Assembly: GCA_973895155.1 (NCBI GenBank)
Contig: OZ316894.1
Location: 20,342,451-20,406,450, forward strand
Origin: Marsupella aquatica
Taxonomy: Eukaryota; Plantae; Marchantiophyta
Direction of reading: 5' to 3'
DNA: 64,000 nucleotides
Below the pieces are notes generated by a model. It was not told the DNA's origin. It did not search any database and saw nothing but the letters and a program-made list of their open reading frames with translations. Below are positions 1,058-53,379 of the stretch, piece after piece. Position 1 is the first letter of the stretch. Each line of letters opens with the position of its first letter. Position numbers and translations under genes: made by a program.

Positions 1058-1232
1058 AGTTGGGATGGATCTCCATCCAAGTTTAGCTTTGAATTCAAAT
1101 GAAGTTTTTCAAAACTCTCTGCCTATGAAAGTTAAAATTTGTCATTCTAATTCATATTTTCCAAAGTTAAATCCCTGCCATCATAGATATTATCTGAGAA
1201 ATTTATTTTTGAGATGGAGATCCATCCCAAAT
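1058..1232. mobile_element. Small MITE (Stowaway/Tc1-mariner-like, TA target site)
   Basis: Perfect 18-bp inverted repeats TTGGGATGGATCTCCATC (1060-1077) and GATGGAGATCCATCCCAA (1213-1230), extending imperfectly to TA dinucleotides at 1056-1057 and 1233-1234. The interior is AT-rich and non-coding. Confidence 0.65.
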
Positions 1233-1254
1233 TAGAGCTCCTTCATTTTGGCTT

Positions 1255-3366
1255 GTGTATGTATTTGCTGTATGTTTTACGTATAATGCTCTGAAGTTGA
1301 GAGTCGCCAATGCAGAGGAGGCTCTGGTTGGCCTAGTGAATTGTTTGTCACAGAATGACCACGGTGGTTTCCAAGAAAAAGCAGCATGGGAGTTGGCAGA
1401 TCTTGCCAGTTCGAGAAATAATGCTCTGAAGTTGAGAGTCGCCGATGCGGAGGGGGCTCTGGTTGGCCTGGTGAATTGCTTGTCACATAGTGACCATCTT
1501 GGTTTACAGGAACAAGCAGCACGAGCATTGGCAAATATTGCCTGTTCAGCGGATAATGCTCTGAAGTTCAAAGTTGCTGATGCGGAGGGGGCTTTGGTTG
1601 GTCTGGTGAATTGCTTGTCACACAATGATCACCGTGGTTTACAAGAAGCTGCAGCAGGGGTGTTGGCAAATATTTCTGGTTCGACAGATGATGCTCTGAA
1701 GTTGAGAGTTGCCGATGCGGAGGGGGCTTTGGTTGGCCTGGTGAATTGCTTGTCACACAATGATCACCGTGGTTTACAAGAAGCTGCAGCAGGGGTGTTG
1801 GTAAATATTTCTGGTTCGACAGATGATGCTCTGAAGTTGAGAGTTGCCGATGCAGAGGGGGCTCTAGTTGGCCTGGTGAATTGCTTGTCACACAATGATC
1901 ACCGTGGTTTACAAGAAGCTGCAGCAGGGGTGTTGGCAAATATTTCCGGTTCGACAGCTAATGCTCTGAAGTTGAGAGTTGCCAATGCGGAGGGAGCTCT
2001 GGTTGGCCTGATTAATTGCTTGTCACACAATGACCACAGTGGTTTACAAGAAGCAGCAGCAGGGGTGTTGGCAAATATTGCCAGTTCGACAGATAATGCT
2101 TTGAAGTTGAAAGTTGCTGATGTGGAGGGGGCTCTGGTTGGCCTGGTGAATTGCTTGTCACAAAATGACCACCGTGGTTTACAAGAAGCAGCAGCATGGG
2201 TGTTGGCAAATATTTCCGATTCGACGGATAATGCTCTGAAGTTGAGAGTTGCCGATGTGGAGGGGGCTCTAGTTGGCCTGGTGAATTGCTTGTCACAAAA
2301 TGACCACCGTGGTTTACAAGAAGCAGCAACATGGGCGTTGGCAAATATTGTTTGTTCCACAGATAATGCTCTGAAGTTGAAAGTTGCCAATGCAGAGGGG
2401 GCTCTGGTTGGCCTGGTGAATTGCTTGTCACACAATGACCACCGTGGTTTACAAGAACAAGTAGCAGGGGTGTTGGCAAATATTGCCGGTTCAATGAATA
2501 ATGCTTTGAAGTTGAGAGTTGCTGATGTGGAGGGGGCTCTGGTTGGCCTGGTGAATTGTTTGTCACAAAATGACCACCGTTGTTTACAAGAAGCAGCAGC
2601 ATGGGTGTTGGCAAATATTGCCGGTTCGACGGATGATGCTCTGAAGTTGAGAGTTACCAATGTGGAGGGGGCTCTGGTTGGCCTGGTGAATTGCTTGTCA
2701 CAGAATGACCACCATGGTTTACAAGAAGCAGCAACATTGGTGTTGGCAAATATTGCCGGTTCGACGGATAATGCTTTGAAGTTGAGAGTTGCCAATGTGG
2801 AAGGGGCTCTTGTTGGCCTGGTGAAATGTTTGTCAATGAATGACCACCGGGGTTTACAAGAAGAAGCAGCATGGGCATTGGCAAATCTTGCTGGTTCAAG
2901 AGATAATAGTCTGAAGTTGAGAGTCGCCAATGCAGAGGGGGCTCTGGTTGGCCTGGTGAAGTGCTTGTCAAAGAAGGACCACCGTAGTTTACAAGAAGCA
3001 GCAGCACGGGCATTGGCAAATCTTGTGTGTTCAAGGGATAATACTCTGAAGTTGAGAGTCGCCAATGAGGAGGGTTTTCTGGTTGCTCTGGTGAATTGCT
3101 TGTTACAGAATGACAACCTATATTTAGAAAGAGAGGCAGCAAGAATGGCATCAAATCTAGCTGGAGCTTCAGAGGCAAAAGTGATGCTCAAAAAAACGCA
3201 AGGTCTTTTGGAGGGGCTTACAAGCTTGGTCAGAGATGACATGCGTTCGGATACTCGATATGCAGCAGTAGAAGCGTTGTTGAAGATAGACCCGACACTA
3301 GCTAGGACAGTAGGCTTGCTCTCCGTACAATTTGATGCCAATCCATTAAGGTATGTGAATTCATGA
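1255..3366 (+). CDS. Armadillo (ARM)-repeat protein exon: 14 tandem 45-aa repeats plus a C-terminal cap
   Basis: 703-codon ORF with unit NALKLRVADAEGALVGLVNCLSHNDHRGLQEAAAxVLANIAGSTD, matching the ARM pattern (GAL..LV..L, H3 ..W.L.N). The ORF has no ATG at its start, so it is probably an internal exon. A likely donor GTATGT lies at 3351, with a short last exon from 3587 (RCQLD*). Confidence 0.85.
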   Translation: MYVFAVCFTYNALKLRVANAEEALVGLVNCLSQNDHGGFQEKAAWELADLASSRNNALKLRVADAEGALVGLVNCLSHSDHLGLQEQAARALANIACSADNALKFKVADAEGALVGLVNCLSHNDHRGLQEAAAGVLANISGSTDDALKLRVADAEGALVGLVNCLSHNDHRGLQEAAAGVLVNISGSTDDALKLRVADAEGALVGLVNCLSHNDHRGLQEAAAGVLANISGSTANALKLRVANAEGALVGLINCLSHNDHSGLQEAAAGVLANIASSTDNALKLKVADVEGALVGLVNCLSQNDHRGLQEAAAWVLANISDSTDNALKLRVADVEGALVGLVNCLSQNDHRGLQEAATWALANIVCSTDNALKLKVANAEGALVGLVNCLSHNDHRGLQEQVAGVLANIAGSMNNALKLRVADVEGALVGLVNCLSQNDHRCLQEAAAWVLANIAGSTDDALKLRVTNVEGALVGLVNCLSQNDHHGLQEAATLVLANIAGSTDNALKLRVANVEGALVGLVKCLSMNDHRGLQEEAAWALANLAGSRDNSLKLRVANAEGALVGLVKCLSKKDHRSLQEAAARALANLVCSRDNTLKLRVANEEGFLVALVNCLLQNDNLYLEREAARMASNLAGASEAKVMLKKTQGLLEGLTSLVRDDMRSDTRYAAVEALLKIDPTLARTVGLLSVQFDANPLRYVNS
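1285..3171 (+). repeat. Coding tandem array, 135-bp unit x14
   Basis: (A/G)ATGCTCTGAAGTTGAGAGT recurs at 1285, 1420, 1555, 1690 and onward to 3040, with an exact 135-bp period and no indels. Confidence 0.95.
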
Positions 3367-6300
3367 CTTCGATTGACCAACGCAACTCTTTATTGTGTAA
3401 ATATTCAGAAAGTAGCAAAGAAGTTGATCATCCAAGGAAATGGACAGTGTCAATAAAAAATAAGTCAGTAGGGACCGGGGTAGGGACGAACGAAGCTAAG
3501 GGCAATAGATGCACAGACGCTAAGATTCAATTTGCCGTCCTTGGGAAATTCTAAATATCTATAAGTAAGACATTGTCTTGTCATAGGTGCCAGCTGGATT
3601 GAGAATATCAGTTGGATAGGGACTAATCTGTGATGATGATGACTGGACACCTGAACTTTTTGAAAGCCGCTGAATTTCCAGACATTTCTGTTTTCTTTTT
3701 TCCTGATTCAAGTTTGATTTTGGTCGCGTTTTGGATTCTCACCTTCTTGACTTACTGTAGATCCCTTCCATACATTCCAAGCAAAAGGGAAATGCCAGAT
3801 AGGAAGGATCTTATCATTGAAAAATCCAACAATGTAGGCTACGATTGGAGACATCCAGGCCTGTATGCTCTGCATTGGATTCACTAACATAGCTTTTCTT
3901 GAAATGTGGTGGTAGCCAAAGTTGCAAAGTATAGGAAAATCGGTTTACATCCTACCCGATGTGATCTGTTTGCAACATTACTCAGTGGTCTATTTGTGAT
4001 GGCAGTAAGAGAATTTCTGTAAAGGGAGAACTTGGAGATTTTCAAAGGGCATTGGACGATGCCAATGAGCCATTCAACTGGACAGATGCCGATAGGGCGT
4101 TTGGCTTGCAGGAGAGACGTGTCTTGAATTGAAGTGAATGGGAGATCTGGGGGCCGCCCTGGCAGATTTGGACGAAGCTTTAAACCTAACGACAAATGAC
4201 TATTAAATGCTGAAGCACTGTGGTTATGTCAAATTCTTGTTAAATGACATGGAAGGAGCTCGCGCAGATGCAGAATGGGCTCCATCAATCGAACCCTTAA
4301 GTGATGAATCAGATGGCTACTTGGGAGGATCCCGCACAGAATACTTGGGCTACAAACTCTAAATGTGAAGATTGTGTTGGATAGATATTGACTGGCGGGG
4401 GTGTGCATTAATTGTGTGATGGACAGCAAACTTGAGCCACGGGAGATCCCTGTCTCCAATTGAAAAGCTTGGACTCTTAGTACCATAGTTGTAATGGATG
4501 TCGGTCTGACCTTTCACGGATGTTTTCAAAGATGTTTATACGCCTAAGATGTAAATTCATGTGCTATGCAAGAGCTTATTTAAGATGGGTTTCAAAGTTA
4601 CTTATGGCACAAAGCATCCGTGCCCCAACATCATCAGCAGTATGGGGCTCACTGTTACGTTAGAGACTCAAACGTCTACATGTGTAAAATTTCAGGTTTG
4701 TTTGTTACATGGCACTGTTCTCAGCTGTAAGAAGTGTGTGAGTTCAAATTGTGTTCTGAATATGTGTACACATTATGAGTCATATACATGCAAATTCACA
4801 GAATTCAAACATTTCTTTTAGCCAATCCTTTGAAGATTGCTATCGTGTAATATCTGAAACAAAACAATTTCATCCCATGGTTCAAAACGTCCAGAATTGC
4901 GAATCCAAAATCTTGTGCGCATCTCGTAGTTTAAAGATTAGAAAAATCCTCAATAGCATCTCTTCATTCCGTCAGTAATATCTGGAGAGCAACTGGCCAA
5001 AAAATCAGCCACTCCCTCATGAACAACAGCGAAAAGTCACATAGAGGGTGGACATAGCCAAGAGAGGACACCACTCGTCATCAAGCCCAACCTACATCTC
5101 GTGACAAGTCAGTTAAGCAATTTAAGTGAACAATGTGCTACTTCTAGGGAAGATGGTGCTGGTAAGTTCTTAGGTAAGTTGTCAACTCTCCCCGCCTGAT
5201 TTGAATCTCTCGGCTTTTGAACGTCTAGAAGGGCACGTTCATGGAGACTTAAGCTTTGCTTGCTGAAATGGAAATGGTACCCTTGTTTGTCATGACAAAA
5301 CCTGGAGATGGACTCCAGTTGAAAAAGAAATATACTTGGAGTGGGATTTCGGTCCCCCTTGAACATCTACTGTGAGCAACGTCTAAGCTTAGGCCATGGA
5401 ACTCGCAAATTGCAATTCTTGTGCTCGAAGAATTTGCCGAGAATTTTGTTCATTCACACAATTGGAGCACACTGACAGTTTGTTTTAGGTTTCAAAGTCT
5501 GCTCAGCTTCGAGTGTCCCTTGCACAAGTCCAATGGATCTGGAAGGAAGATTTCATCGCGATAGACTGGGAAGACACCACTATTGAAGACGATACGTTTC
5601 CAATGACAGCACTCAGTGAGTTTCCTGCATGATTACTGTTCCATGAACAAAACTGGACTATATACACTGATAGCAGAGGATGCTCAACAAGCATCAAGCA
5701 TTTTCCTAGATCCTGCATTCCACTATATATTTTAGACTCGGCCTTCGTGTTTTGACTCTTGAAGTTCAGCAAACGAAATGCGCAAGACTAGGCCATACTT
5801 CCAAACACTAAATACACACTTCATCACTAAGCAGAACGATCCCAGGAAGCTTGACGTTGGTTTCAATTTATTCCAAACCATTAAATACGGGTTTTCCTGG
5901 TTCGTACTCATTATTTTGTGTTGTCCCACAAGAAGATATTTTCTTGGCTCTAACTGGACCCTTGAACTATTTTTAGTCACTCACTAATTGAGTCAGACAG
6001 AACATACACTAATACCTCAATTCAGCCAGTCAAAATAGCTTGTGTTCATCGAAGTGACTCTCTGCTTGCTCAAGCTTTGCGAATTATTGAGATGAGATCC
6101 ATCTAATTATTTTATGGTGATGTGAATAATTAGTATGATGCAGTCAGCTTCATTCAATGCCAATCAAATGACCATTCAAGCCACTGTCCCCTAAATTCAT
6201 GTAATCATGTTGGCCAGATTATCTCCAAGTGTGGACAACTAGAAAACTTCAAAATCCGTTCACTGTCATCATTGTTAAGAAACTTTGGGGGTATCTTTTG

Positions 6301-7866: not shown

Positions 7867-9355
7867 TCATGGAATGTCTGGGGTTGGAAGAGGAAAAGGT
7901 GCAATGACCTTTCTACAATGGTAAACCCAACTCCACAAGTCAGGAGTCTCAATCAATGGCAGTCTTAGCTTGTCGATAGGTAGCCATAGAATACCACAAG
8001 AAATTGGAACCGTGTCGTAGGTATGTGGAAAAGGAAAAGACTCACCACCAAACATAAGTGGAGGTAAGGGAGGTGCAAGAGGAATGCATGCGTCGATGAG
8101 TGACGTGATCATCCTATCAAACTCGGCGGGGAAGACATAAAGAGGCTCAATATCGGTAACAGAAGAGACAATAGGAGACTGAGACATCAAAGGGGTAGGA
8201 GCTATAAAGGGTACACTGGGAGGCTCTACAGTCTCAGGCTCAGTCTCAGTCTCGGGAATAGGCTCAAGAATGGGTTCATTTCCTTCCCTGGTAGGAGAGG
8301 GAAATGAATCATCAGGGGGTGGTAGGGTGGTATCCTCGATGGGGAAGAATGGAACTGGAGTGGATACTGGTGAAGGAGGTAAAGGCTCAAGGGTAGGGGA
8401 TGGAGGGTACTTGGGTAAAGGGGGTGTAGGTGTGGATGGAAGGAGTGAAGGGTCAACAATAGGTATCTCCGGCTCATCCACATCCATAGGGTGGTTAAGC
8501 TATGGTGAAGGTGCATGAGGTGAAACATGAGGGGGTGGGGTGGAACGAGACTCAGAAATCAAAGTACGAATACAATCAAGTAACTGCATGGGAGTACAAC
8601 TCAAGATTCTAGTGGCCTCATCTACCAAATGCTGGTTGAAACCAGCCACACTAGCTAGTCTCTCGACATCACCAACAAAATCAGTCCATGACGTGTAAGA
8701 AGTGGAAGCAACAAAAGAGGGAGAAGTTATCCCTGGTAAATCTGGTGCTATCGTCTGCTCCACTAGAGGGGGTCTTGGTGAAGTCGTGGGCGATGGAGTC
8801 AACTCTCTCGCTAACTCTAGCTAAGGAAGCTCAAAGTGTCTCACTCTCCTCCTCCAATCGCTTAGCTCGATCCACTGGTAACACGCAGTCTCTCAAAAAT
8901 TAAATGTGAGCCAAGTAGGGTGTCAAATAGGTATCACTAGTAGTAGTCAAGACAACCACTTGCTTGGCGATCGCCTCCGAAAGAGCTAGGGCCCAGTTGA
9001 TCCTCCTCTTGCCGGTCCATGAAGCGATGATGGAGCTGGTCAAGTAAACCATAGCCCGGGCCATAGCCCTGGTGGGTTTGGTCGGATGAAAGATAGGTAC
9101 AAGGAATCGGAGTAAATGAGCTAACTCCCGATTCCTACACTGATCAATCTTCCAACCAGACCTCCGGTTCTTGGTACTTCTAAAGTAGGGGACAGTCAAG
9201 TCCTCCCCAACAAAAATCAATCTCTCTCCTTCCTGGCTCAACTGGTACACCTCAGAAACAATGGCGGCGGTACAAACATCAGCTGAACCTCTAGTAGAAC
9301 TCCAGAAAGTGCTAGGACGTGCTGTGCGCAGAAAATAAGCAATGAGGGACCCCAT
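7867..9355 (-). pseudogene. Degenerate retrotransposon accessory ORF (HP..P...INWA...YLAH domain plus Pro-rich tail)
   Basis: ORF pieces 8900-9355, 8500-8802 and 7867-8487 are separated by stops and frameshifts. The motif FLVPIFHPTKPTR...GKRRINWA...YLTPYLAHI is homologous to the ORF at 10549-12291. Confidence 0.55.
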
Positions 9356-10548
9356 GCACCATGTCCCATGGAATGAAAAGTAAAGAACTCAATCCCATCT
9401 CTACCAGGTTACTAAGAAGTCAAAAGTAAGCCTTAGGACCTGGAGGTAAGGTCACCCTAATGGTCTTACTAACTGGTAAGCTTTTGGTAGCCATATATAG
9501 CTTCCAAGAAATCAAAAAAATCTGAGAAAACAATTGAACTTAATACTCCTAAATGGCTGACCTTCGGAAATTGAGAATGGAGGTATAAGCTCTTGAAGTA
9601 GCTACGCTGCTTCTAGAGAAAGAATGAACAGAAAATGTCAAGGAGAAAAGTAGTACTGATCAGTTGAAATTTGAAACTCTGTGAGATAAGGATGTTCATG
9701 AAAGAAGGGTTAACTAACCATAAATTTTAGAATTTTTACGTTTAAGATCTCAAATAAGGCTGAAGAGGGACCTGAAGACTACTTTGAAGTGTTATGAGAC
9801 TTTCAAGCCCATCTGAGGTCAACCCGGATTGATATTAGAGAAGGAGGATCGACCCGGAACTTTTTACTATAAGCCTTGAATGAGATATAAAGCTTATACC
9901 AAGACTCTACTCAACAACAGCTGTCCATTGCCAAAGTTTTTAAAACCATAAGTCAAACACAGGCACGACCACAGCAGAATCCGGATATAAGGAAGGAGAG
10001 TCGATCCGGCCTCTCATACCTCTCAAAGCCAAACTTAGTAGGTTTTGAGCTCCCGAGCGCATTAGGCTGTTTAAGCAGTAGAGTGAGGAGGCTCTACCCT
10101 TTTGGTAGAGGATCTTGGGTCCGGATTATAGGACCAATCTTGCATTGCATGATGAGAGCCTGGATATGAGGGTACTGACTGATTCATTGTAAGGGGAATG
10201 CCTACTCCACCGCTGGAAGTGAAGGCAGGAAGTTTGAGATCCTGATCGTGGATACATCGGTTGTGAGAAGGGAGGCCAGGTCGACCCAGACATTACCATT
10301 GCAGGCCCGACTGAGTCCAGCGTTTCCCCATGTTAGATGACCCTACATTGTGGTTGACGAAATCTTGATGAAATTCTTCCGAAACGATTTTCAATTGATC
10401 AGAAACGCTGCGGCCAGCTTGACCCGGACATTTCTACCAGTGGTCGACACCGAAGAGATTGAACATTCTGAAGCCGCATCATTGTAGAGCTCACCGTAGA
10501 GGAGGCAAAACATTTACCATAAATCAAGTTTCAGCTTCCAGAAATCCT

Positions 10549-12291
10549 ATGGAGCAAGGGGCGGATCCAGCCGGAATGTCCACTTCTCGCGTCTCTAAGG
10601 GGCATTCAACCTCAACATCACCTGCACCTACTCCAGTTAAAGCCCCTGTGAGACGATCAAAGAGAAAGGAGGTCCCCATTGCCATGAAAATTCTGAGACC
10701 AGCTATTCCGGACAGTGAAGCTGAGAAGGTCAAATTGAGGGAGTCTTTGCTCAGGATGGGCTGTGAGTCTCTGATGGAGCTACCCTGGAGTTATCAGAGC
10801 GAAGATATGATCAGAGAGATCCGATCCAAGGAGTGTCCGGCTGAGTTTAAGGATACCTCCAGAGGCCGACCTGAGCGATGGACTCAGATGATGATTGCAG
10901 GAGCTTTTGTATTGGAAGATGAAGGAGAAGGTCCAGTGGGGAGAGCTGTCAACCTAATCCTTCCTTACTTCAAAGGAGCCATCAACAATAAGGACGGGTT
11001 CAATGTTTCTAAGTGTTTGGATCCTGATCTGAGACAAGTCTTCAGCTTTCTGCTACCCTTGCTGTACCCTAAGAAGCCAAGAAGAGTTACTGTTGGAGTT
11101 GGCTCTACCATTGTTGCTGCTTACAAGGGAGAAAGAAAAGTCAACTGGGCTAAGCTTATCTTTGATTTAATAAGGAAGTTGGTACAGAACCTGTCCAACA
11201 AGAGTCCTACTCCCCTCTCCTGCTACCTAGCACATCTATATAGTTTTGAAGGAGTCTTGTTCAGAGAGGAGAAGAAATTACTATTGGCCAAGTTCAACTT
11301 CATAAAGTATGGAGAGACAGATCCAGATATCACTCAGGCCACCTCTGATGACAGTGAGGATGAGGAACCAGTAGAGACAAATCCTCGAAAGACCCGGTCT
11401 GTTGCTCGGAACCTCGACCCAGACTTTGCCGACCCGGCCTTCGTCGACCCGGCTGAATTTCTGGATGCACCCGGCCATGCCTCCCTAGACACCCTAGCTG
11501 ATATCCATATCATCTCCGACACATTCCAGAAGGTGAAGAGGAAGACCACTGTGATGGAGAAGGCCATCACTGACATTTCTCAGAAGTTAGGAGTAAAACC
11601 AGGGCAGATTCTTGAGAAGATCTCCACCATGAGTGATGCCACAGATAAGAGGAAGTTGGAGAAGGAGAATGAGTTCCTTAAGAAGAAGGTATCTGAACTC
11701 AAACAGCAGTTGGAAAGGAGTAAGAAGAAGAATGAGCTTGAGCATACTCTCCAACTCAGTATCACTCAATCTTTGGATCTGATTGAGCCTTTGACTAAGA
11801 TTGCTTCTCTGGATCTTCTTAAGACCCAAATTTATGATGAGTATTTGGCCAAGAACACCACACCCATCCTTTTCTCCAAGATTAACCATTTAGTGGTAGA
11901 TGTGAGTACCAAGGTGGATGATGCACTTACGGGTCTCTCAAAGACCTGTGAAGCCTTAAGGGAGATGAGTGACTTGACTATAGAGGAGCTATTAGCTGAT
12001 ACTGAGATTCCTGTCTTTACTACCAGATCTTTCTCTCCTAGTCCTCATGAAGGAGTCTATTCCACTGGCCCCTCATCACCCCTCAACCCTCCTGGTTTCC
12101 CCACTCTCAGTACACACTTCCACTCCCATTCTTACACTTATTCTCATGACCCAAGTGCCCATCAGGAGAACATGAATATTGACCCGTCCATCCCTTTTAC
12201 CACTGGCCAGCAGGGAGTTTTCCTTCGACCAGAACCCCTTGCCATGGCTAACCCTGAGGAGGTTCCTTCCCAAAAGCTAGGACCAGAATAG
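10549..12291 (+). CDS. Intact intronless transposon accessory protein (putative plant-transposon-protein-like domain, coiled coil, Pro/Ser tail)
   Basis: 580-aa uninterrupted ORF from ATG 10549. It contains FLLPLLYPKKPRRVTVGVG...GERKVNWA...PLSCYLAHLY, then an acidic linker and a coiled coil (KRKLEKENEFLKKKVSELKQQLE). This layout is typical of extra ORFs in plant Gypsy elements. Confidence 0.65.
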   Translation: MEQGADPAGMSTSRVSKGHSTSTSPAPTPVKAPVRRSKRKEVPIAMKILRPAIPDSEAEKVKLRESLLRMGCESLMELPWSYQSEDMIREIRSKECPAEFKDTSRGRPERWTQMMIAGAFVLEDEGEGPVGRAVNLILPYFKGAINNKDGFNVSKCLDPDLRQVFSFLLPLLYPKKPRRVTVGVGSTIVAAYKGERKVNWAKLIFDLIRKLVQNLSNKSPTPLSCYLAHLYSFEGVLFREEKKLLLAKFNFIKYGETDPDITQATSDDSEDEEPVETNPRKTRSVARNLDPDFADPAFVDPAEFLDAPGHASLDTLADIHIISDTFQKVKRKTTVMEKAITDISQKLGVKPGQILEKISTMSDATDKRKLEKENEFLKKKVSELKQQLERSKKKNELEHTLQLSITQSLDLIEPLTKIASLDLLKTQIYDEYLAKNTTPILFSKINHLVVDVSTKVDDALTGLSKTCEALREMSDLTIEELLADTEIPVFTTRSFSPSPHEGVYSTGPSSPLNPPGFPTLSTHFHSHSYTYSHDPSAHQENMNIDPSIPFTTGQQGVFLRPEPLAMANPEEVPSQKLGPE

Positions 12292-15420: not shown

Positions 15421-18400
15421 TGCAATGGGTGGCAATCCTACCATTAGTCCGCACCCGGTACGTCCCTTGAAATGGCGCTTTTTCTTGGACAAAGCATACA
15501 CACAACACCAGTTACTCGCGGGTAGAATCAGAGGGAAAAGACTACATTTACTCAGCGAAGAATCAGTTTACATAGTTGACTCGACTTCTAAGGGGGTCAG
15601 CAGGCCTAAGGCAGTCGATGCCCAGTCTCTACGAGGCCCCACCCCGCACTTGCCCAGCAAGCTCGACTCTGGCTCTCACTCCTTAGTGCACTCTGACCCT
15701 ACTCAGGCCGGGACTCCTCGTACCTCACCTTTTCTTGCATTGAGATAACTAAGCCTTCTCCCCCTCCCACAACGGAAGGGGAAGCCTAAATACTACATTT
15801 GCGAAAAGGAACCGGAAGAAACTACCTCTCGGGGTAATGCCTACTGACTGACTACCTTCTGACTAACCGGCCGCACTACCTCTGACCGTCAGTGGCGGGG
15901 GCGCTGACCAGGGTGGCAATAGCCAAGTCTATTGACCAAAATCCTAGTCCATTGATGGACTCTATCCTATGTCGGCCGATCCTAACTGATTCTGTCCTAA
16001 TTCTTCCTATTGCGCCGCTAATCGGCGCCTAATGACAGCCATTCTATCGTTAAGCCTAATAAAAAAGATGTTGCTGACTCAACTGCCCTACGCGGCGCCT
16101 GCTCAAACCCTTTGCTAACCACCCCTTACGTGCATGTTGTGGTCGGGCCAGGGTTTGTCCCCTTGTCGGGGCGAGATCTCAAGCCGCCTTGATCAGAGGT
16201 GGGCCCAGGTCTTGCCCACTGGAGGACTAGCAGGGTAATGCGATCCTACAAGGCCTTGTTGTTCTGTACCGCCTCTTCTACCTCGTTTGCAGCTTCATCA
16301 GCCTCAATCTGGAGCCGTGCTACCTCTAGGCTGAGCTGGCCAATGGAGTCACGATGAGTCTGGTCCTGCGCCAGCAATTTATCTTGCTCGGCGGAGAGAC
16401 TAGCCACCTGCTGAGCTGATTGCAGGAGTTGGTTGTTGAGGTCAGTCAAATTGATAACCCAAGCCGAGGATTCTGAGTGCAACTGAAGCACGGTGTCGTC
16501 CAACTTCTTGAGATCTGCTCGCGTTGTGCTCAACTCTTGGCTTAGTCCGTCCCGTTGTTCAACGGTGTGGACTAACTCCTCACGACGGGTAGTGGCCTCC
16601 TCTTCAAGGTGTTCCACTAGCATTTGGAGGTGCCCAATCTCGTTCCCCTTTGCCATGAGTTCTTCTTCCAAGCGGCCTACGATCCGCGGTTGGTGCTCTA
16701 ACATGAAAAAGGCTGGTTAAAAGTACGCCGAGACTTGTTGTCCGATGTACGTTGCCAGCTCCCCTGACAAAGTCTGACTAAACTTCTGGACCAGGTCGTA
16801 GGCCATGGTCCCTGGGGCTACTTAGTAGTCCTCCATCCTCTCAGGCGCCGGTGGTTCCTCGGGAGGGGCGGCGAGCTCCTCCGTAGTCTACAATGGGGAG
16901 GGGAAGGTTTCTTCAGGTGGTGGAGGGATTGGGGGTGGTTGTACCGGGGGTAGCGGAGGCTCGACGGAAGGAGGTGGCAGAGTATTAACAGGAGGAGGTG
17001 GCGGAGTATTAGTCGGGGCCATGGGCTTGGGGTTTTCCTGAGGCGCGATAGTCCACTCGCTCATGGTCGCCTCCTCCGAAACGGGGGTGACATTAGTCGG
17101 GGCTGAGGTGGCCATGTTCTTTCCCCTGGCCTCCCGCTGCGCTTTGTACCAGGCGAGGATGATGGCAATATGACTTCCCAGGCAGGTCCTTCCTCTGATA
17201 GCCATACCTCCTTGAGCCCGCTTAAGCTCCCCCGAGAACCTACGGTAAAAGAATTGGGCCCAGTTCCGCCGTTTGTACTGTTTTACCTGTACGATCGTAC
17301 AGAGGGAGATCTCGGATTGTGGCTCAATCATGTGTAGGGTAGTCCGTATGAAGTTAAGCCGCACCATACAGATTAAGTTGGTGTATGACCCCTGCTTGTA
17401 CCCGTTGTCTATCTTACCCTCGGGTTTGAAGTGCCGAGGTGTATACTCCTTATCCCGAATTCAAAGTTCAACCAACACCGGCCCGGTCGGCAGACAAAAG
17501 ATCTATGCCAACCGATGCTCCGTAAGTGATAAGGTCTGTCCCAAAACCTTGGTGGTCAATGCGTCAGTGTCAAAGTTGGAGATGAACTCATAAACCTCCT
17601 TTGGCCCGGTTGCACAAGGTCTCCATAGCAAGTGAGCGAACTGCTCCAACTGATGCTCCTTGAGATAGTCCGCGTGGTCGGGTTTCTTGATCGCCGTCTA
17701 GACTACCTCGGGGACGCGGATTACCTGTAATAAGTTGTGCTATTGATTATCCAAGGGCCGTCGGGTCTAGTTGGTTGGGGGGTTGGTCGGGGCAGGTGTA
17801 GGGGCGGCATTGGTTCGCATTGTCGGTTTGGGGGTTGGCGTCATCCTCACCCGCTTCCGAGAATGCTGCTCAAGCTACAGACTAACACGCTCGGAACCCA
17901 AGGAACACTCGGTGTTATTCACGGGATGAACTTGGGACCGGTTTGGCGGTACGTCGGTGATCATCGGCTGAGGGGCTGGGGGTGGTGTCGGGGTAGCCAT
18001 ATCCCAGTTGAAGGCGTTGGAGCTTTCCCCGAGGAACGTGAGATTACGCGCCGCTTCCCGTTGTCTGCTGATGTCTTCTTCACGCTTCTCGGTTGCAATC
18101 TGTTGGTCAATGTATCCCGGGATCTTGTCAAACTTCGTTGGAGTCAGTCTCTGGCTGCCCCTCGGCCTAAAGAACTTCGCGGGGACTTCAAGAATCACCT
18201 CTGCTACCGATCAAAACCCCTCCTCGCTGATATATAGCTCGGTGATGTAATCCCGCAGCTCGTTGTAGCTGGAATCCCTGGTGATGGCCGTCTTCTCACA
18301 GTTAACCTGTGCTACCTTGGCCACCAACTTCGCGTATCTTTGTTTGTAAGTGGCTTTCTCGGGGCAAGAGTACCAGTAAGTCTCGGAGAACTTAGCACCT

Positions 18401-36327: not shown

Positions 36328-39300
36328 TTAGATTTCTACATTCACATGTTTCTGGTGTCTGTTGACTGGTTTATCAGGCCCGTCATCTTCCTGCATTTCA
36401 GTGAGTCTAGAAATGGCAACACTCTTCTCTTCTTCTGTAGCATCAGGAGCCTTGACTACTATCTCATAACTTTGCTCGGCAAATGGAAACTTCCCCTCCT
36501 TGAAATACATTTCGGCAAGTTGTAAGCGTGGAGCAGCTGCCTCCTTCACCTTCAATGATTCTAGATAGGCACCCTCAGCATCTCTGCAAACATTTCATTT
36601 TACATGAGTCACAATATCTAATTAATGTGCATATCCTTGAGTAACCACCCTTCATGCTCTTATTTTGCTCCATCAATTATTTTAGGAGGTTGGTGCTTTT
36701 GTCTTTGCTTGTCTAAGCTGAAATAGTTCAAAAGGCTAATTAGCATAAATAGAAAACAATATGATTATAAAAATTAAAAAGAACTGAGACGTGTTACTTA
36801 CTTGCAAGCCCCTCTTTATTATTCCAAAAAAAGGAGATGATTGGGAACTATCAATCTCAGCTACCGCTAAAACCAATTTTTTGGAATCTGTCCAGTGAAT
36901 TTTTCAAGACCTAGGTGTCACTCCTTGCTCTACCTGCAATGAGTGAAGAATATACCTGAAGTTTCCAATTGTGGCAAACCCTTGAGCAATTATGACCAAC
37001 AAGTCTGGATCCACAATGCATTTCAGGCTTTGTTGGTAGGAGACCTCTGCTTCATCATACCTTTCTGCCCTTAAACAAGTAAGAGTTAAGAAAGCCCAAA
37101 TCTTGAAGTTTGATGTGTCAAGTACATTTCCTTCAACCAATGCTAACTCTGCATGGTCTAGGTTTCCAGCATGAAAGTAGGACATGCCAGCACCCAACCA
37201 CAAGGCTGGACTAGTCGGTACGACTGTGCAACCCTTCAAAAAGACTTTTCTTGCATCTTCCCATTCTCCAAGCTTGAAATAAGAGTATCCCAAATCCAAA
37301 TAAACGTGCTTGTAATAATCTTGATCATCTTTAATGTATCTCTGATACTGCAAAAAAAATCAAGACAAAATTCTGAATATTTGCAGAAGTAAACAACTGC
37401 CTTGGGGATACATACTAGAACTTGCATCTATATCTATACTGAGTATAATATGCTAGGGAAATTTATGTTCGTGACCTTCTCCGTAGAGTAAGGCCATAGG
37501 CCAAAATTTGGTTGGTATTAATAGAAAATGTCAATATATTGACTACCTTTGTGAGTAGGGATGGGCATGGGGGGTCAGGGTACAAGGAGCCCTTCCTGTG
37601 CATATGCACAGTTATATGGGCTGGTGGAAGCAAAAGAAACAAGTCAAAGCATTTCCATATAGTATCTCTATTGAAGATAGCAAGCTCTCACTGAAATTTT
37701 GAATATCAGTTTTATATCCTTTAGTCAAACAAGTGACTCATTACATTACTGGACTGCCTTTGCTATATTTAGCTGTACAGGTGCCACCATATGTTAAAGT
37801 TCAAGAAGATCAGCACTAACTTCAATAAGAATTAGTGTATAATATTATGAGGCCTCGTCCCAGACTTACAAGATATAAGTTGAAAGGAGAAAACGTTTTC
37901 AGAAGAAATGACAACTCTGAATTCTTCAGGAGTGCTAAACATTATAGGCATCTTATTTAGGAGGTGAATTAATAGCAACACACCTGGTTAAATGCATCAA
38001 TGGCTCCCCGGTAAAGAGTGGTCTGAAGAGCAGTAGTATAATGGGGAGGAGGGTCGTAATTATATTTCAGGTGACCTAAAAGAAGCCAACTTGTTGGATT
38101 TTCTTTCTCCATTTTCAAAGCTTCTTTCAGAGCTTTTTTAGCCTTTTCTAATTTTCCACTCAACTCATGAATCCTTGCTCTACACCACTTGTTATCCAAC
38201 GTGCACGAGTACACTTCCACCTCCAATCCGAGAACCTGCTCTGCCTCTTTTGGCAGGTGGAGATCAAGTAACATCATGGCAGTGTCCACAAATACACCAC
38301 CAGTGTTTCGAGATGAGAGAGATAGGTTAGATATGCTGAAAGCAAAATTCCATAGAGAGCTCAATAGCTGATGGGGTGGACTATAGTGACTTTGTTGGTC
38401 TTGTCTTGATCTGTAAAGAGTTTCTGCTCTTTTCAAACAACTTCTCACATTAGCTTTCTTCTTTTGTGCAGCATACACCTGTTCAAGCAATATGTGCATA
38501 TACACCGTCATCCAATCACTGATCGTAATTGACACTCTTTTGTAACCGTATTTTTAGCCTGAGAGTTCAAATGTTGCACCATGGCTTGACAGCACTCCTA
38601 GTACTGTCAAGCATAAATAACAATGCAGATCATTCACCTGACTAACAAGGACCCAATTTATGTGTTCCTCTTCAGAGTGCAAGTTGATAGCATTCCGAAA
38701 CAATACTTCTGCTTGAGCCAGATATCCACGATGCCACAGTAGGCATCCCAATGCTTGTAGACTGAAAAGATGGTTTTTCTGCAAGGTAAGTGCTTCTCTC
38801 CAACACTCTTCTGCTTTTCCTTGTTCTTTTGGCCTAACCTGTATCCATTGTCAAGCTCATGTAAACTTCATTTCCAATTTATCACATTTTCATATGAATT
38901 TCTTTAAACATAATCTTCATGGAAGGTTTCTCGTCTGGTACTTGCACTGACTAGGAGAATTCTGTATTCAATCGTAATGGAAACAAGCAGAATGACCTGT
39001 TATGTGCGTCAGCCAGGCCACACCAAAATTATGTTAACTATGAACAAAATCATAAATGTTGATTTTTGTTTAGAAATCTTGCCTACTGTGGATACATAGA
39101 TCCTTCTACTTTTTGATGAGAATTTTGAGTTCAAACCAGCAAGAAGTGAAAAAGATTTTGGGAAAACTTACTCGCATGTAGAAACAACCATACTCAAACC
39201 AAATGTCTGGATCATAAAGATTGTCTCCCAACAACCGCTCTTGGTGACATCTGTTTGCCTCCTTGTAGTCCTCTTGTGCCTGATCAAGGTAACTTAGTGC

Positions 39301-42300
39301 TTCAAATTTCTAAAGAAAATTCAATGATCACTGCTGAAAAATTAGCAACAGATTAAAGTGCTGGTCTGATTCCACTAGTTTAGTTGAGTTATTTTTTGTT
39401 ATAGCAGGAAACCCGGTAGGAAATAGATCAAAGTTGGAGGCAAAAGTTCAAAATTCAGGAGTTTTGCATTTTCTGAAATACAGAGATATGCTTAATTTCA
39501 TGTCAACTTATAAGCATATCTCTGTATTTCAGAAATTTGAATCCTTTTATTGCAGCCAGTGGTGCCAGATTTATTTTGCTAAAAGACAGATTCAGTACCC
39601 ACTCCACCTGAATGTCACCTCTTCTTTGGCCTAAGTCTAGATGTGACAAGAGAAGATCTTACTAAGGACTTGTGGGTCCCTTTTTAATGCAAATGACTTA
39701 AAATAGAAATGGACCAAGGGGCCAGAAGAAGAGACCTCCAAGGTGGTCTAAAATCTAGGACAAAAGAGTGGTCCACATAAGCAAAAATCATGCAGGATTG
39801 GTAACAAGTTCGGTTGAAAGTGCCCCCAATGTTTTGTAAAGTGAACAGCAGCAGTTTCTCCCGAATGAATGGCTCTGATCAGATCTTGGAGACAAAAAAA
39901 ATTGGAAACTGCCCCCAATGTCTTGTAAAGACACTCTGAATCATTTTTTGTGAGTTGAACAGATCTTGCCACTAGTCCACAAATTAATCCAAACATCTCA
40001 AATTCGAAGGAAGACACCTGACACAAGATCAAATTGAGATCCCTGAGGTGCATTGAGGATTAAATTATGATGTGCTAAAACTTTTCACCAGAGGTTACTC
40101 ACTTCATATTCATCTGCCAACTGACGAAGTCTTGTCAAATTATCAAGTATATCTGTCTTTTTCCCATTTCTCTGCAATTTAATCAAAATTCAGACTTCAC
40201 AACTTCATACACATCACTTGGAACATTGCTCTCAAATTCATTTTAGTTCTTTATGATGTCTTTGTCCACTAAAAGTAGTTTTATTTGATAATGCAAACCA
40301 TAGCGACCAAGCAACCCACTAGCAGGAACAAGCCAAGTAGTAACAAAAACTAAGCCCTTGGTTAGTTTCTGAACTGACAAGAGGTCCAAGGTCGACCTAA
40401 AGCCAGGAGAGAGAAAAAGGTATTGTAAATCTGTGGGAATTTTTTCCTAAATGAGGTTCATAAACTGCACTTCAATCTATGAATCCCATGATCTTAGCCA
40501 TTCGCTGGGTTTGAAGATTGATAACTTAATTCAACATCTATAAAGTATCAGCTCATGCACAACCATGAGCTAAGACAATCATCACTAATGTACTGCCAAG
40601 AATTTCTATGCTGTATAAACTCATGGGCCGGGAAAGATTTGCTCTTAATTAACACGTGCTTGTCACTACTAACCTTAGCAAAGTAGGAGCGCAGAGCAAT
40701 AATGAATTTACTTTTTCCAGCATTTTCTTGAGAGTGTTGAATGTAACTTCTGATAGCGAAATATAGAGGTTGTTGCAAAACTCAAATTTCCCAATGTCAG
40801 TGGCAGCTCGTTTCCTCTCTCTGTACTTTTCTGCTGCAACTTTGAGAACTTTTGTTTTCATTTCCTCTCTAATGTCATTCCAAAGTCCTTGCTTTTGGAG
40901 TTGTCGCACCATTTTTTTTCTGATCTCTCCTTTTGTTTCAAATCTATACATGAAATCCACAAAATGAAGGAATTAGGTCATTTAAGAGATTTTTATTTGA
41001 AGCTACAACTCCACGAGACTGTACAAATTCTTCTCTTATGGGGACCACATCTATCTCTTCATCTATTCACGTCTCTTGATTGAAGTGTGTTAAACAGTTT
41101 TCCCTGGGCTAAAAAAAACAGCACCAGCATAATCTACCAACCCACTCACTTTAGCTTAATTTGTTCTGGATATTTGGGACTTCACAATGTTTTTGACAGC
41201 TTTGACCTTGGCTGTGACATGCATGGTTGGTCATGTAATTGGTTATCATCCTCACAAGCACCGGGATATTGAGTAAGATCTTTCAAGAAAGCAAATGGGA
41301 ATGAAGATATTAACAGTACTCCTTCTAAGATCCACTTTTCTATTTCAACAAATTAATCAACACTTTAATTAGTTCTAATCAAAGAAACTATCATTTGCTT
41401 AGCGCCATCTGTTTGGGGTCAGTCCTAAGTTAGCTCTCCATGTTGCTCTCCATGTTTTTCAGCACTCACTAATATCTATTCAGCAAACAAACTAATTAAA
41501 TCCATAAGTAATAGTTCATTTACATACTAACAAATCATTTGTTGTCTGCCTAGCTCCATCTGCTTGGGGTCAGTCCTTAGCTCTCCATGTTTTCCAGCAC
41601 TGACTAATATCTATTCAGAGAATTAATAATTAAATGGGTACAATGACGTTCATAAGTAATTGTTTTATACATACTAGTATATCATTTGGCATCTTGATAT
41701 GTCCATACTAACTGACCTTCTATGTTTTGGAGCATTTGGATCTCCCATGGTATTGGTCTCTTCATAGAGTTCCTTGGCTGTAAGGTCTTGGTGCATGTCT
41801 AGCAAATCGGATCCAACATACTCCACAAACTCAGCAAACTTGTCAATTGCCATTTGGACAGCATCATACACGGAGGCTTGCTTGGGCCGAGGAGGTATCA
41901 CGCTATCAAGGCTGAAATCTGGCTCTGGTGGGGGCTCCCATATGGGTTCCATTGGCTTGCTAGCTTGAATTCTCATTTCAAGTAAAGCTTCAGACAATTG
42001 CCAGGCATTGTTGGGAAGAGGATGGTCCGGGTCCGCACATACTGGAAGAGGGGGATCGTCATCCACAAGGACTGGCTTTGGCTGTTGCTTTTTCCCACCA
42101 CCTTTAGGACTTGTAGGCTTCCCACTGGCCTTGGGACTTGTAGGCTTGCCACCAGGTTTGGGGCTTGTTGATTTGGCAGTAGGAGGTGGAACACTAGCAG
42201 GACCTTGAGGTTGAATCAGCGGTATGCCAGCTCTGGTCCCAACCAAAGAATAGCGCTGAAGAGGTGTTTTGAGCTCAAAATAGAAACAGCCTTCTTCCAA

Positions 42301-45056
42301 GAAAGGAGATAGATCCAAGAAAAAGCAGCCATGATACTTGTCAAAACTAGTGTCAGTGACTTCTGATGAGGATTTAGCAACTCTAGCTATCTCACCTCGA
42401 AAGAGGCGACCAAGCTTCACCAATCCCTTCAGCTCTTGTATTGCTCTGCTTGGATAAAGTCTCTTCACAACAATATGATCTGGCCACTTCATGACTGCTT
42501 GTGGCTCGAGCTCAGAATCCTTTTTATCAAGTACTGAGTATGGGTCTACAAGCTTGTCCGTACTTGAAACATATGCTGTCTCTGACTGCAACAACCTCCT
42601 TTTCAATTCCTCTGCTTCCATCCTCTGCATCCTCTCCTTTGCTTCTGCAGCAAGTAATTTTTCCCAAGTCATGGCATCCTGAGCAGCTTTTGCCTCTTGG
42701 GATTTCCTGATTGCCCTAAGCTCTCCCTCAAGTGATCCTTCTGGAGGAATTATGCTTGGCCTTCTGTCTGGCTGGGGTTCTACTGCCTTCACTTCAACTT
42801 TTCCTCCCTCAAATTTTACTTGTGCAATAGAAGCCTTTTCTTCAGGGTTCAAGTAGTTTATTTCATCCCACCAACCTAGGCCAAAAAATCCTGGTAGCTC
42901 CAATGACAATGTGTAGCTAAAAGGGTCAACTGGAGATTTCAACCCAAAGTCTACTACCTTTGGTGGAAGATTCCGCAACATGCCAATGTCAAATTCCACC
43001 ACCACACCATCATGAATATCATCTTCAGACCAAAATGGAGTTGTGGTTGATAGAGAGACTTTTACCTCTGCTCCTTCCAGCAAGGTGGGCATAGTTTCAA
43101 TTGGAGGAGCTTCCGCTTCTCCCTTTCCCTTTTTGGTCTTCTTGCTTCCTTTCTCCTCAAATTTTCCTGTCTTTTCTTTAGCACCTTTTCCACCTACACA
43201 AGATTGAAGAGACAAAGCATGATTTGAAGTTATGTTACCTGGGGATTTCATCTTTAAAAAACATAGGAACCACATGCAATCCAAACTAGGTAATTTCATA
43301 TTGTCCAAGAATATATTCTCCTTATGAAATGGGGGTATTAAATTAGGTCAAGATTGTACATGGTATCCAAAAATATGTTGTTAGCCCCCAAGTATGTTGA
43401 TGTAAGCCTATTTTCATACTTTAACGTACTGTGACCTCACTTGAAGCTCAATCTATGTAACTACTCATTCCTAGTGGACAGTTCTTTTGATAGTGACATC
43501 CTTATGTGTAGGGGTAGAAGTAATGAAGTTTTGTGTAGTATTTTTTCTCAAGAGTCTCTGTTATTAATCCCATTTGGATGTAACCACGAAAACTTAGTAT
43601 GACAATAAATTTAACTCACTGGGAACATTTTGCAGCTCTTCACATTGGGTTCTTAATATTTGAAAGGAAGAAATCTGTGCTTGTCAACATCTCAAATCAA
43701 ATGTGCTAAGATGTTTTTGCAGATGGGTGAGCAATATCATTGTTATTTCTTGTTCATTTTCTCAGTTTAGATGACATTAGAGGTACATTGATATAAGATT
43801 CTTTTTGTTGTTGTACAGTATATGTTTCATGTCAATCAATCATTCCTTTTAGCTCCTGTTTGAGTAAGGGCATTAGTTGTGAAAACATAAAGACAATAAT
43901 ATTCTGAAAAGCTAAAGATAGTAGAACTTGAAGCCTTTTGAGATGGCAGTCTCTTGCATTGAGTCTTTGATCATTATTTCACTCTAAATTAGTCAAATTG
44001 AGTGGTGAAGAAATGTCTATTAAGTTTGGATTTGAACACACCTTTTTTGGGCTTGTCTTGCTTTTCATCCTCTATGGGCACAGGGGGCTCTGGGATTTTC
44101 TCTAGCTTGTAAGAAGCCAATAGTTCACCTTCTCTGAGTGCAAGCACTGGAAAGGTATCAATACGGGCTTGGGCAAATGGTAATCGAATGGCCCCAGTTG
44201 GAGAAGTCCAATACATGGTAACTATTAAGGGCTCCGTCAGAAGTTTATGCCAAAGAGCATAATTGGACACCACATCAAATTCCTTTGGTGGAATGTTGGC
44301 AAATCTTGTAGTTGGAGGTGGTGGTGGTTCATGTAAATCTTTTTTAAGAGGCTCTTCTGGCTCATCTAGGTCAGTGTCACCCTCTGGGGGTTCAGAAGGA
44401 GGAACCCATGGATCAGGTGCTACTTCTGGCTCAATTGCTTCCCCAATTTCTGGGCCAATTTCTTTGGGAGGTGGAGGAGCTCCAGGAAATTGGAATGAAA
44501 ATGATGCCTTGGACTTTAATTGCCGCTCTTCAATTGCAAGGGCATCGGTCATGTTTGGAATGACGACATTGTCAGAATTTTCATCCTTGCCACTAACTTT
44601 AGTTTTTTTAGCAGTGACATCCTTCACAATATTGTCTTTCTCGCCTATGGGGGCCTTCTCCCCAGTGTCTTTCTCCCCACCACTTCCTTTCTTTGTTTTA
44701 GCTTTTGCTGAAGATATCTTGTCTGCATTGGTAGAATTGAGAGGTAGTTCTTTCTCTGCATTTTCAAGAGGATCTCCCTTTGGGCCTCCCTCTAATGCCC
44801 ATGGTTGCTCTGCTGATAATATTTTCACCACAATGGCATATCTGGTGGAAGGAAGCGTAAACAATATTATTAAATTTATAGCCAGAAAGGTAATGAATAC
44901 AAGACAAATTTAATTCTGTTTGAAACAATCACATTGAATTGAGAGCAAAGTTTGAGAGGTAGGAAGAACTATCACTCACCTAGGTGGAGGTGGTGGGATC
45001 TCATCCACAGGAATGGTGATGTCATCCTCTGTTAAAGGCCACTCTTTTGTCTCCAT
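36328..45056 (-). CDS. CFAP70: Cilia- and flagella-associated protein 70 (TTC18; C-terminal TPR repeats), 10 coding exons
   Basis: Phase-consistent GT-AG exons on the minus strand: 45056-44980, 44841-44042, 43193-41717, 40943-40712, 40171-40103, 39279-39172, 38838-38638, 38478-37984, 37347-36956, 36583-36328. Motifs DKYHGCFFLDLSPFL, VIPPRP, LRQLADEYE, HQERL...IWFEYGCFYMR, KAEECWREAL and LWLGAGMSYF...AELALVEGNVLD..N..IWAFL match the CFAP70 organisation as recalled. Confidence 0.85.
41400..41620 (+). repeat. Intronic tandem duplication (~150-bp spacing)
   Basis: CCATCTG(T/C)TTGGGGTCAGTCCT...TAGCTCTCCATG...CAGCACT(C/G)ACTAATATCTATTCAG appears twice inside CFAP70 intron 3. Confidence 0.7.
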
Positions 45057-49235: not shown

Positions 49236-50006
49236 GAAAGCAGGCTGACTGGCCTACCGGTTGAAACGAAGCTATACATAGACAATCAAGGTTCCTGTCT
49301 TCGCTCCCACTCGGTCCTCAGTCGCTGCTCTGCTTGCTCTGCTGTACCATTGCTGGTGTCGAGAGAGGACTATCTAGCGGACAGAACAGCAGGCACCGTT
49401 TGGCTGTTTAAAGTGTGACAGGCACGATCAACTTCTCTTGGCAGCGGTTCCGGTTTATTGACTAGTCTGCAAGCAAGCAAGCAAGCAAGCAATCAAGCGA
49501 GCCCATTCTGCTCTTTGCAGTCAGGCGTCTTGGTTGTTTCAGGAAGGCAGGAAGGATCCGGTCAAGATCACTGCGTGCACTATTGTGTGACAGAAAAAAG
49601 GGAACATCAAGCTGGGTTTGCGTTTGGATTTCTGACTGAGGGACTAGAGGGGACGGGAAGATCAGACGATCGGACTCTGTTTTCATCTGGAATTCTTACT
49701 GACGAGCAGCGAGAGGTCGATCAGCAGCTGAGGTCAAGATAGGAGCAGCCAAGCTTGAGATACTGCCAAGGAAGTAGTCTTCGGTGTGCTAAATTCGAAG
49801 AAGTCATATCGAGGATATAGAGCAAGCGAAATGAGTCTGCATTTTGTTCGGTGAGCAGTGAGCCTCTGAGCATTAGTCTAACTAATTTAGAGAGGTCAAG
49901 GATTGGAAGGAAAATTTCTGTTCGGCAGAACAATTATGCTTTGCTACAGATAGAGATAGTCGAGAAGAGGTTGGTCTGGGAGAGCATCATAGAGAGTCAA
50001 AAAAAC

Positions 50007-53000: not shown

Positions 53001-53379
53001 CTCGAAGGGCCTTCCAAATTTGTGCTGGAAATATGATTTGCACTCGCTGACTTACCCGCGTGCTGCTCAACTTTTGCAGATTATGGAAGAGTTCGGATCG
53101 TTTGACAAGTATCTGTGGAACTTTGTTGGATTCAAGCCCATAGTGAACAACTACCACATTTTCACTCAAATCCCTGTAAAGAGTTCGAAGTCAGAAACGC
53201 TGAGCAAGGATCTTATGAGGAGAGGGTTCCGTTATGTGGGTCCAACAACTGTGTACTCCTTCATGCAAGCTGCAGGTATGGTTAATGACCATCTCGTCAG
53301 CTGCTACAGACACGGAGACTGTTCTGAAATCTCACAAATCCAGCCGAAGGATGTAAATGGCGGCAACAAAGACTGTTAA
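50007..53379 (+). CDS. tag: DNA-3-methyladenine glycosylase I family (TAG, Adenine_glyco) with a long Pro/Ser/Ala-rich N-terminus; 5 exons
   Basis: Exons 50007-51246, 51963-52020, 52136-52219, 52673-52814 and 53080-53379 are all GT-AG and phase-consistent. Motifs include KRCHWVT, YHDEVWGVPLHDDK, LFELLVLEG, FADFDP, EFGSFDKYLWNFV, SKDLMRRGFRYVGPTTVYSFMQAAGMVNDHLVSC, with Zn ligands C/H/H/C present. Confidence 0.92.

Follow-up and report, generated by a model that had tools for sequence, protein, structure and literature searches.

A near-uniform armadillo-repeat array in Marsupella aquatica as a candidate ligand-sensing domain of an immune-receptor-like liverwort gene family

What kind of protein is encoded by an armadillo (ARM) repeat array whose units are nearly copies of one another? 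A stretch of 64,000 nucleotides from the liverwort Marsupella aquatica (GenBank assembly GCA_973895155.1, contig OZ316894.1, positions 20,342,451 to 20,406,450 of the forward strand; hereafter the window, with positions counted from its first nucleotide) raises this question, as it holds 14 such units in one frame. An initial annotation, made from the sequence alone, had proposed a plant ARM-based modular recognition protein diversified by unequal crossover or gene conversion. Our comparison with related proteins suggests that the array may be the ligand-sensing domain of an immune-receptor-like liverwort gene combining NB-ARC, ARM and tetratricopeptide repeat (TPR) domains, and that this copy, one paralogue in a multi-copy family, is probably damaged; we hold this reading with about as much doubt as confidence. 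The proposed recognition protein is thus supported at the level of the family, whereas for this copy the site models gave no significant positive selection and the tests for unit exchange were borderline.

The ARM domain comprises the following features.
1285–3174, + strand: ARM repeat array, 14 units of 45 amino acids (periodicity, Pfam, AlphaFold model with alignment, Foldseek).
3175–3350, + strand: cap closing the ARM domain at its C-terminus and running up to a phase-2 splice donor, GT at 3351–3352 (relatives, paralogous contig).

In the unit register used here, the array consists of 14 gap-free, in-frame units of 135 bp. Tandem Repeats Finder returned 13.6 copies at 1283–3118 with 88% matches and 0% indels, the stop-free frame spanning the array extends from 1213 to 3366, and the ARM frame is unbroken over 693 codons, which together bear out the 14 units in a single open frame described by the initial annotation. 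The array is plausibly encoded by one exon; without splicing, read-through past the cap would stop at 3364–3366. Units 1–13 differ pairwise at 5–28 nucleotides per 135-nt unit, and unit 14 differs at 39–43. Self-identity at a lag of one unit (45 amino acids) averaged 79% and reached 95% over 100 amino acids, and 152 of the 486 segments within the array showed at least 85% identity across 100 or more amino acids, the criterion used for the repeats of fungal NOD-like receptors (NLRs; PMC4986451). The description of the scaffold as nearly invariant even at synonymous sites was overstated: the proportion of synonymous differences (pS) between units was 0.21, dS was approximately 0.24, and 25 of 45 third positions and four of seven four-fold degenerate columns were variable.

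Pfam Arm (PF00514) matched the array with an E-value of 4e-50 in 11 stretches; matches such as those to FAS_pseudo-KR and ACT_4 were dismissed as summed repeat noise, with 0 significant stretches. An AlphaFold model of units 8–14 and the cap, built with a 13-row alignment, had a predicted local distance difference test score (pLDDT) of 89.9 and three helices per unit (helix 1, residues 1–9; helix 2, residues 13–21; helix 3, residues 27–41). A single-sequence model was poor (pLDDT 50) and was set aside. The best Foldseek matches of the first model were designed armadillo proteins and importin-alpha, with TMq of 0.73–0.84 for the top ten designed armadillo proteins. The fold of the array, as modeled, is armadillo.

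When the designed repeat is aligned by its Trp and Asn, the ARM number equals the unit column minus 2, and columns 32, 35, 39, 41, and 42 correspond to ARM 30, 33, 37, 39, and 40. The variable positions named in the initial annotation are accordingly the helix-3 positions 30, 33, and 39–40 of designed armadillo repeat proteins, as it had stated (PMC4756613). Its residue lists for columns 32, 35 (W,R,G,G,G,G,W,W,G,W,L,W,R,R), and 41–42 were exact, and unit 12 indeed carries the complete E30-W33-N37 motif (E-x-x-W-x-x-x-N), the conserved N of which is replaced by D in unit 1. Glu30 and Trp33 are described as exposed at the surface and important in binding peptides, and conserved concave-side asparagines as binding the peptide backbone (PMC4756613); the peptide-binding residues are placed in helix 3 (PMC10684580).

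An index-free search of 1.84 billion protein representatives, with units 12–14 and the cap as query, yielded 735 matches; the best 150 of the 735 were considered, and 20 of these were examined individually. The top two of the 735 were the Calypogeia fissa proteins CAM6113877.1 (P0041; E 4e-127) and CAM6087058.1 (P0042; E 5e-111), both of which combine an N-terminal domain and NB-ARC with a repeated ARM array. All seven matches at E<=1e-30 were liverwort proteins, three of them with NB-ARC. Unit 14 and the cap are 51% identical over 80 amino acids to the end of P0041. The array period is one unit in the window, two in P0041 (self-identity 72%), and three in P0042 (91%) and in a third Calypogeia NB-ARC protein, CAM6117780.1 (P0071), whose 12 units average 82% identity and reach 100% over 100 amino acids. 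The P0071 N-terminus, which had no Pfam match at 1e-5, may be alpha/beta-hydrolase-like. Units are more alike within genes (mean 52–72%) than between genes (37–43%). The window shares 43–45-amino-acid ARM units, the terminal unit with its cap, and a TPR tail with liverwort NB-ARC-ARM(-TPR) proteins (the three Calypogeia proteins, Marchantia MARPO_0095s0062, and Riccia sorocarpa R1sor_026262, R1sor_026268, and R1sor_026317); it differs from them in that no NB-ARC was seen in the window and its tail is broken. These proteins are the closest to the ARM exon and the broken tail, which makes it likely that the array represents the sensor domain of an immune-receptor-like gene.

The tail is present in 11 of 15 NB-ARC family proteins (NB-ARC was scanned in 14 and assumed from the cluster for one), including the cluster named MpNBS-LRR15. 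A search with a Marchantia tail recovered NB-ARC-ARM-tail proteins from Calypogeia and the three neighboring R. sorocarpa genes (P0016, P0017, and P0022), whose nearby locus numbers, assigned to a contig of equal length in each case, suggest that they form a cluster. MARPO_0095s0062 (P0199) bears the name MpNBS-LRR15, and Pfam detected NB-ARC, ARM, and TPR in it and no leucine-rich repeat (LRR) at E 1e-5. Automatic annotation labels several members of the family 'unc-45 homolog B'. In other searches, a word-index protein search with the whole array returned six distant matches, the lengths of the closest relatives lying outside its range; the window tail found one unrelated TPR protein; the ESM Atlas contained generic ARM clusters only; and none of 138 pattern matches from a metagenome scan with the array was confirmed. 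A metagenome scan with the family alignment, covering half the collection, yielded one locus (L001) from 592 matches.

The strongest support for the sensor idea is independent of this window and comes from variation among the units of the relatives. P0041, P0042, and P0071 were analyzed as proteins only. For P0041 and P0042, like units of one protein were compared in 34 columns free of gaps, with caps excluded and with 11 of 13 and 13 of 15 units, respectively. In these two proteins, the seven columns with the most variation were ARM 26, 29, 30, 33, 36, 37, and 40 (each p<0.0001), which form a single face of helix 3. From the helical spacing, we take ARM 26, 29, 36, and 40 to line the same groove. 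Variation in P0071 was highest at ARM 29, followed by 24–26, 30, and 40. All three Calypogeia proteins have a repeated array with helix-3-face variation, and per-column variability in the window correlated with that in P0041 (rho 0.41, p=0.017). ARM 30, 33, and 40 stand out in all three arrays compared (p=0.003, 0.003, and 0.03), the window giving p=0.003 with sites chosen partly post hoc. Of the face defined in the relatives, only these three positions vary in the window; Asn37 and Glu29 are nearly fixed there and variable in P0041.

Within the window array, the most variable unit columns by the proportion of nonsynonymous differences (pN) were, in order, 32, 41, 23, 35, 44, 42, 27, 36, and 10. 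The initial annotation had claimed that variation focuses on peptide-binding positions. Its four columns (32, 35, 41, and 42) are unusually variable, with a mean pN of 0.37 that approximately 3 in 100,000 four-column sets reached, the sites having been picked after seeing the data; variation is not restricted to the groove, however, as the nine columns also include two in loops (23 and 44), one at the start of helix 3 (27), and columns 36 and 10. Placement of the variable residues on the concave groove was clear in the relatives and is suggested here for ARM 30, 33, and 40. Codon models were run with our own code on units 1–13. The M0 model gave an omega of 0.65 (against 1, p=0.037) and hydrophobic core sites an omega of 0.29 (p<0.001), and no stop in 14 units had a probability of 0.016 under neutral simulation; constraint on the scaffold is modestly supported. 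As fixed sets, the four columns had an omega of 2.65 (p=0.002, post hoc) and ARM 30, 33, and 40 an omega of 2.6 (p=0.006, sites chosen partly post hoc), which suggests diversifying selection at groove positions. Exchange between units would inflate tree-based omega. Incompatibility was found in 44% of informative-site pairs, and a neighbor test for unit exchange gave p=0.05, or 0.17 without same-codon pairs, so that the proposed diversification by unequal crossover or gene conversion has borderline standing.

The presumed gene around the ARM domain includes five further features.
134–259, + strand: putative upstream exon between AG and GT, phase 1 on either side, encoding an acidic and proline-rich peptide; its belonging to this gene is uncertain (sequence).
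487–782, no strand: high-copy insertion resembling a miniature inverted-repeat transposable element, in the presumed intron (contig depth, direct repeat).
1056–1234, no strand: small element with 22-nt inverted arms that are 95% complementary (sequence).
3807–3911, + strand: putative middle TPR exon of 35 codons (phase 2-2) that contains an in-frame stop, TAG 3835–3837; low confidence (gap of about 30 residues against relatives).
4006–4362, + strand: last exon, TPR tail, broken (identity to liverwort tails, intron position in L001).

Most units are preceded by a GAT codon, which the phase-1 donor of the upstream exon would complete; the peptide of that exon had no homologue among 201 stored proteins and no Pfam match. 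Directly before unit 1 there is no AG acceptor, a GT standing at 1281–1282 instead; an in-phase cryptic CAG acceptor lies inside the unit at 1313–1315. The insertion at 487–782 is bordered by a 12-nt direct repeat and shows a summed contig depth hundreds- to thousand-fold over its flanks, with loose ends at 487–491 and 782; an old degenerate duplication (298–470 and 876–1048) lies on either side of it. Downstream, a paralogous contig with a loose end at 3336 retains the donor context of 3351. The possible middle exon had no blastp support, and its TAG was absent from one paralogous contig in three runs. Liverwort ARM-TPR proteins match 4138–4359, and the tail is 46–55% identical to those of ARM-TPR and NB-ARC-ARM-TPR proteins. 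The tail exon follows a phase-2 intron at the same position as in L001, a metagenome contig whose last exon (L001:729-1118), from the same TPR-tail family, is unbroken.

The initial annotation had overlooked this tail exon and its lesions, which consist of a frame break with TGA at 4130–4132 and an in-frame TAA at 4204–4206. Contigs were compared in four runs from two studies; one run may represent the source sample. Contigs free of differences spanned the frame break in three of the four runs; in the fourth, one listed record spanned the TAA. A G at 4204, which gives an intact codon, was found in 11, 6, 12, and 15 contigs in the four runs, and loose ends from paralogues pass through the frame-break region in frame. 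The lesions are thus present in window-type contigs and missing from paralogues, which indicates that they are specific to this copy and that the tail is multi-copy; this copy is probably a damaged paralogue. Assembly error as their origin was ruled out by the matching contigs, although one run may be the source sample. The intact tail codon also bears out the expectation of paralogues in the genome. Summed contig depth over the array was approximately 9–80 times that of the flanks, a hint that does not equal copy number. Paralogous contigs show small indels relative to the array (1497–1500 and 3042) and its upstream flank (1221 and 1273), so that some other copies differ in frame or boundary.

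If the array is such a sensor domain, one unit would have been amplified in tandem, the inner units would have been kept alike by duplication or unequal exchange, and peptide-groove positions 30, 33, and 40 would have diversified. In intact members, an extended peptide may bind along the groove, with the conserved Asn37 on its backbone and the variable residues on its side chains. Binding would release the NB-ARC switch, a step modeled on NLRs in general and on rice RLS1 (PMC10030324), and the N-terminal domain would signal defense or cell death. Specificity would then shift with the number and order of units, in the manner of the conserved-repeat NLRs of fungi.

Several results weigh against this reading. 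The expected link to NB-ARC holds for the closest relatives, whereas a six-frame profile scan detected no NB-ARC in the 64-kb window, which has only 1,284 bases upstream of the array, and tblastn of 27 relatives against 1–1283 gave no family-like sequence (best E 0.025). NB-ARC is missing from four of the seven best matches, and the highest score of the tail is with Marchantia proteins of the Mp3g10370 type, which have no NB-ARC (P0010/P0011; 54–55%). In the dN/dS tests for positive selection, M1a against M2a was not significant (p=0.55 and 0.62); the four columns given their own rate had an omega of 1.74 (p=0.25); the helix-3 face set a priori had an omega of 0.98–1.07 (for the seven positions of the relatives, 1.07, p=0.82) and enrichment in variability of p=0.07; and ARM 26, 29, 36, and 37 are conserved here (omega 0.34). 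Derived states, 49 nonsynonymous and 25 synonymous, are near the neutral ratio of 2.1–2.2, and per-column variability in the window was unrelated to that in P0042 (rho -0.02). The designation of this copy as damaged is weakened by the four of 15 NB-ARC family members, including the two closest relatives, that are annotated without a tail. In the literature covered, no functional test of any liverwort family member was found.

Some of these results would fit a working NB-ARC-ARM receptor, with N-terminal exons beyond the 5' edge of the window, splicing at the in-phase CAG at 1315, and a dispensable tail. The whole ARM frame, the constrained hydrophobic core, and the two closest relatives, which end at or before the cap, agree with such a gene. 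We nevertheless consider it unlikely, given the missing AG at the unit boundary, the two insertions in the presumed intron, the lack of family-like sequence in 1–1283, and unit-private changes that look neutral (29 nonsynonymous to 12 synonymous; against shared changes, p=0.46). The array may instead have arisen by ordinary tandem duplication in a decaying gene. In that case the variable positions would be surface residues on which constraint has relaxed, and selection would not have changed the specificity. The non-significant site models, the omega of about 1 on the a-priori face, loop columns as variable as groove columns, and at least two lesions in the tail are all compatible with this explanation, which we regard as rather improbable: loops and helix 2 are exposed as well, yet two independent relatives concentrate their variation on one face of helix 3, ARM 30, 33, and 40 stand out in three arrays, and 14 units have neither stop nor indel (p approximately 0.016).

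An ARM-TPR adaptor that lacks NB-ARC, as do Marchantia Mp3g10370 and Mp4g04270, and that serves as a non-immune scaffold or a decoy would account for the tail affinity and for the lack of NB-ARC in the window. Here the ARM domain itself disagrees, as the ARM units and cap scored 139 bits against the NB-ARC protein P0041 and approximately 71 bits against P0010/P0011, and the repeats of Mp3g10370 and Mp4g04270 are divergent, with self-identity of at most 36%; we judge an adaptor very improbable. A tree of tails was unresolved, and a tree of units was weakly supported.

The sensors of plant NLRs almost always consist of LRRs; NB-ARC-ARM proteins form a rare class that has received little study. 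Non-LRR solenoids are reported as rare in plant NLRs (PMC9825502), CC-NB-ARM is described as a recognized plant protein class (PMC12512272), and ARM-type repeats as expanded in Selaginella NLRs (PMC8559963). Rice RLS1, which has been linked to cell death and resistance (PMC10030324), belongs to this class and resembles the liverwort relatives in having NB-ARC with ARM replacing the LRR; unlike the window, it is described with three ARM motifs, and near-identical repeats and a TPR tail do not figure in that description. In fungal NLRs, arrays of near-identical repeats (WD40 in HET-E/HET-D; ANK, TPR, and HEAT in Podospora) are reported to vary at concave-face residues (PMC4986451; PMC12222747). 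The window resembles them in the uniformity of its units. It differs in consisting of armadillo repeats in a plant, and for the fungal arrays positive selection at the concave face and repeat-number polymorphism are reported as established, including at a HEAT-type locus (PMC4986451; PMC12222747). Short-read assemblies are reported to misrepresent such arrays (PMC12222747). Designed armadillo proteins and importin-alpha share with the window the fold and the Glu30-Trp33-Asn motif that is complete in unit 12 (PMC4756613), whereas the window units are natural and heterogeneous, 45 rather than 42 amino acids long, and mostly without Trp33 or Glu30. No account of liverwort NB-ARC proteins with near-identical ARM arrays was found in the mainly open-access literature searched, supplements excluded; in the main text of bioRxiv 10.1101/2022.10.19.512840, 'armadillo' and 'ARM' never occur.

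Sequence comparison makes it likely that the family contains an ARM version of the conserved-repeat NLR sensor, replicated in annotated relatives. ARM units that are near-identical save at a few groove positions offer a testable residue-to-ligand code and natural modules for armadillo-based binder design, and the family could serve as a model for the ways in which early-diverging plants produce diversity in recognition. Even if this copy is dead, the idea stays testable through three annotated Calypogeia proteins that show the same pattern. More broadly, and with confidence somewhat short of even, we propose that liverworts may run an expanded NB-ARC receptor family whose sensors would be natural modular peptide readers, built of near-identical ARM units with a small, reshuffled helix-3 code. 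Such sensors would amount to a plant equivalent of the conserved-repeat NLRs of fungi and to designed armadillo binders in natural form; they may have arisen repeatedly within the family, paralleled by green-algal HET-ARM and kinase-ARM proteins.

Two green-algal proteins were noted among the matches. In Pleodorina starrii GLC57930.1 (P0053), a weak match to a HET domain (E 4e-6) precedes ARM repeats whose self-identity is 90% and which, by eye, appear to vary on the equivalent helix-3 face. Tetradesmus obliquus WIA28525.1 (P0054) has a kinase, approximately 19 ARM stretches with 86% self-identity, and a RING finger.

Elsewhere in the window, the following features were recorded.
36904–44909, - strand: multi-exon gene with TPR exons (Pfam).
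49821–53379, + strand: long Ser/Pro-rich frame with a methyladenine glycosylase exon (PF03352, 52789–53379) downstream (Pfam).
60183–61031, - strand: frame ending in a PHD finger (Pfam).
8900–12291, 16246–17460, 58298–58912, and 61924–63998: related-looking long frames, with no Pfam match in those scanned.

The product of the gene at 36904–44909 is presumably similar to cilia proteins such as CFAP70, as would suit a plant whose sperm swim. The Ser/Pro-rich frame and the PF03352 exon possibly form one gene. The first part of 60183–61031, which had no Pfam match, resembles a retrotransposon integrase in its motif, and the four long frames are probably accessory genes of transposable elements.
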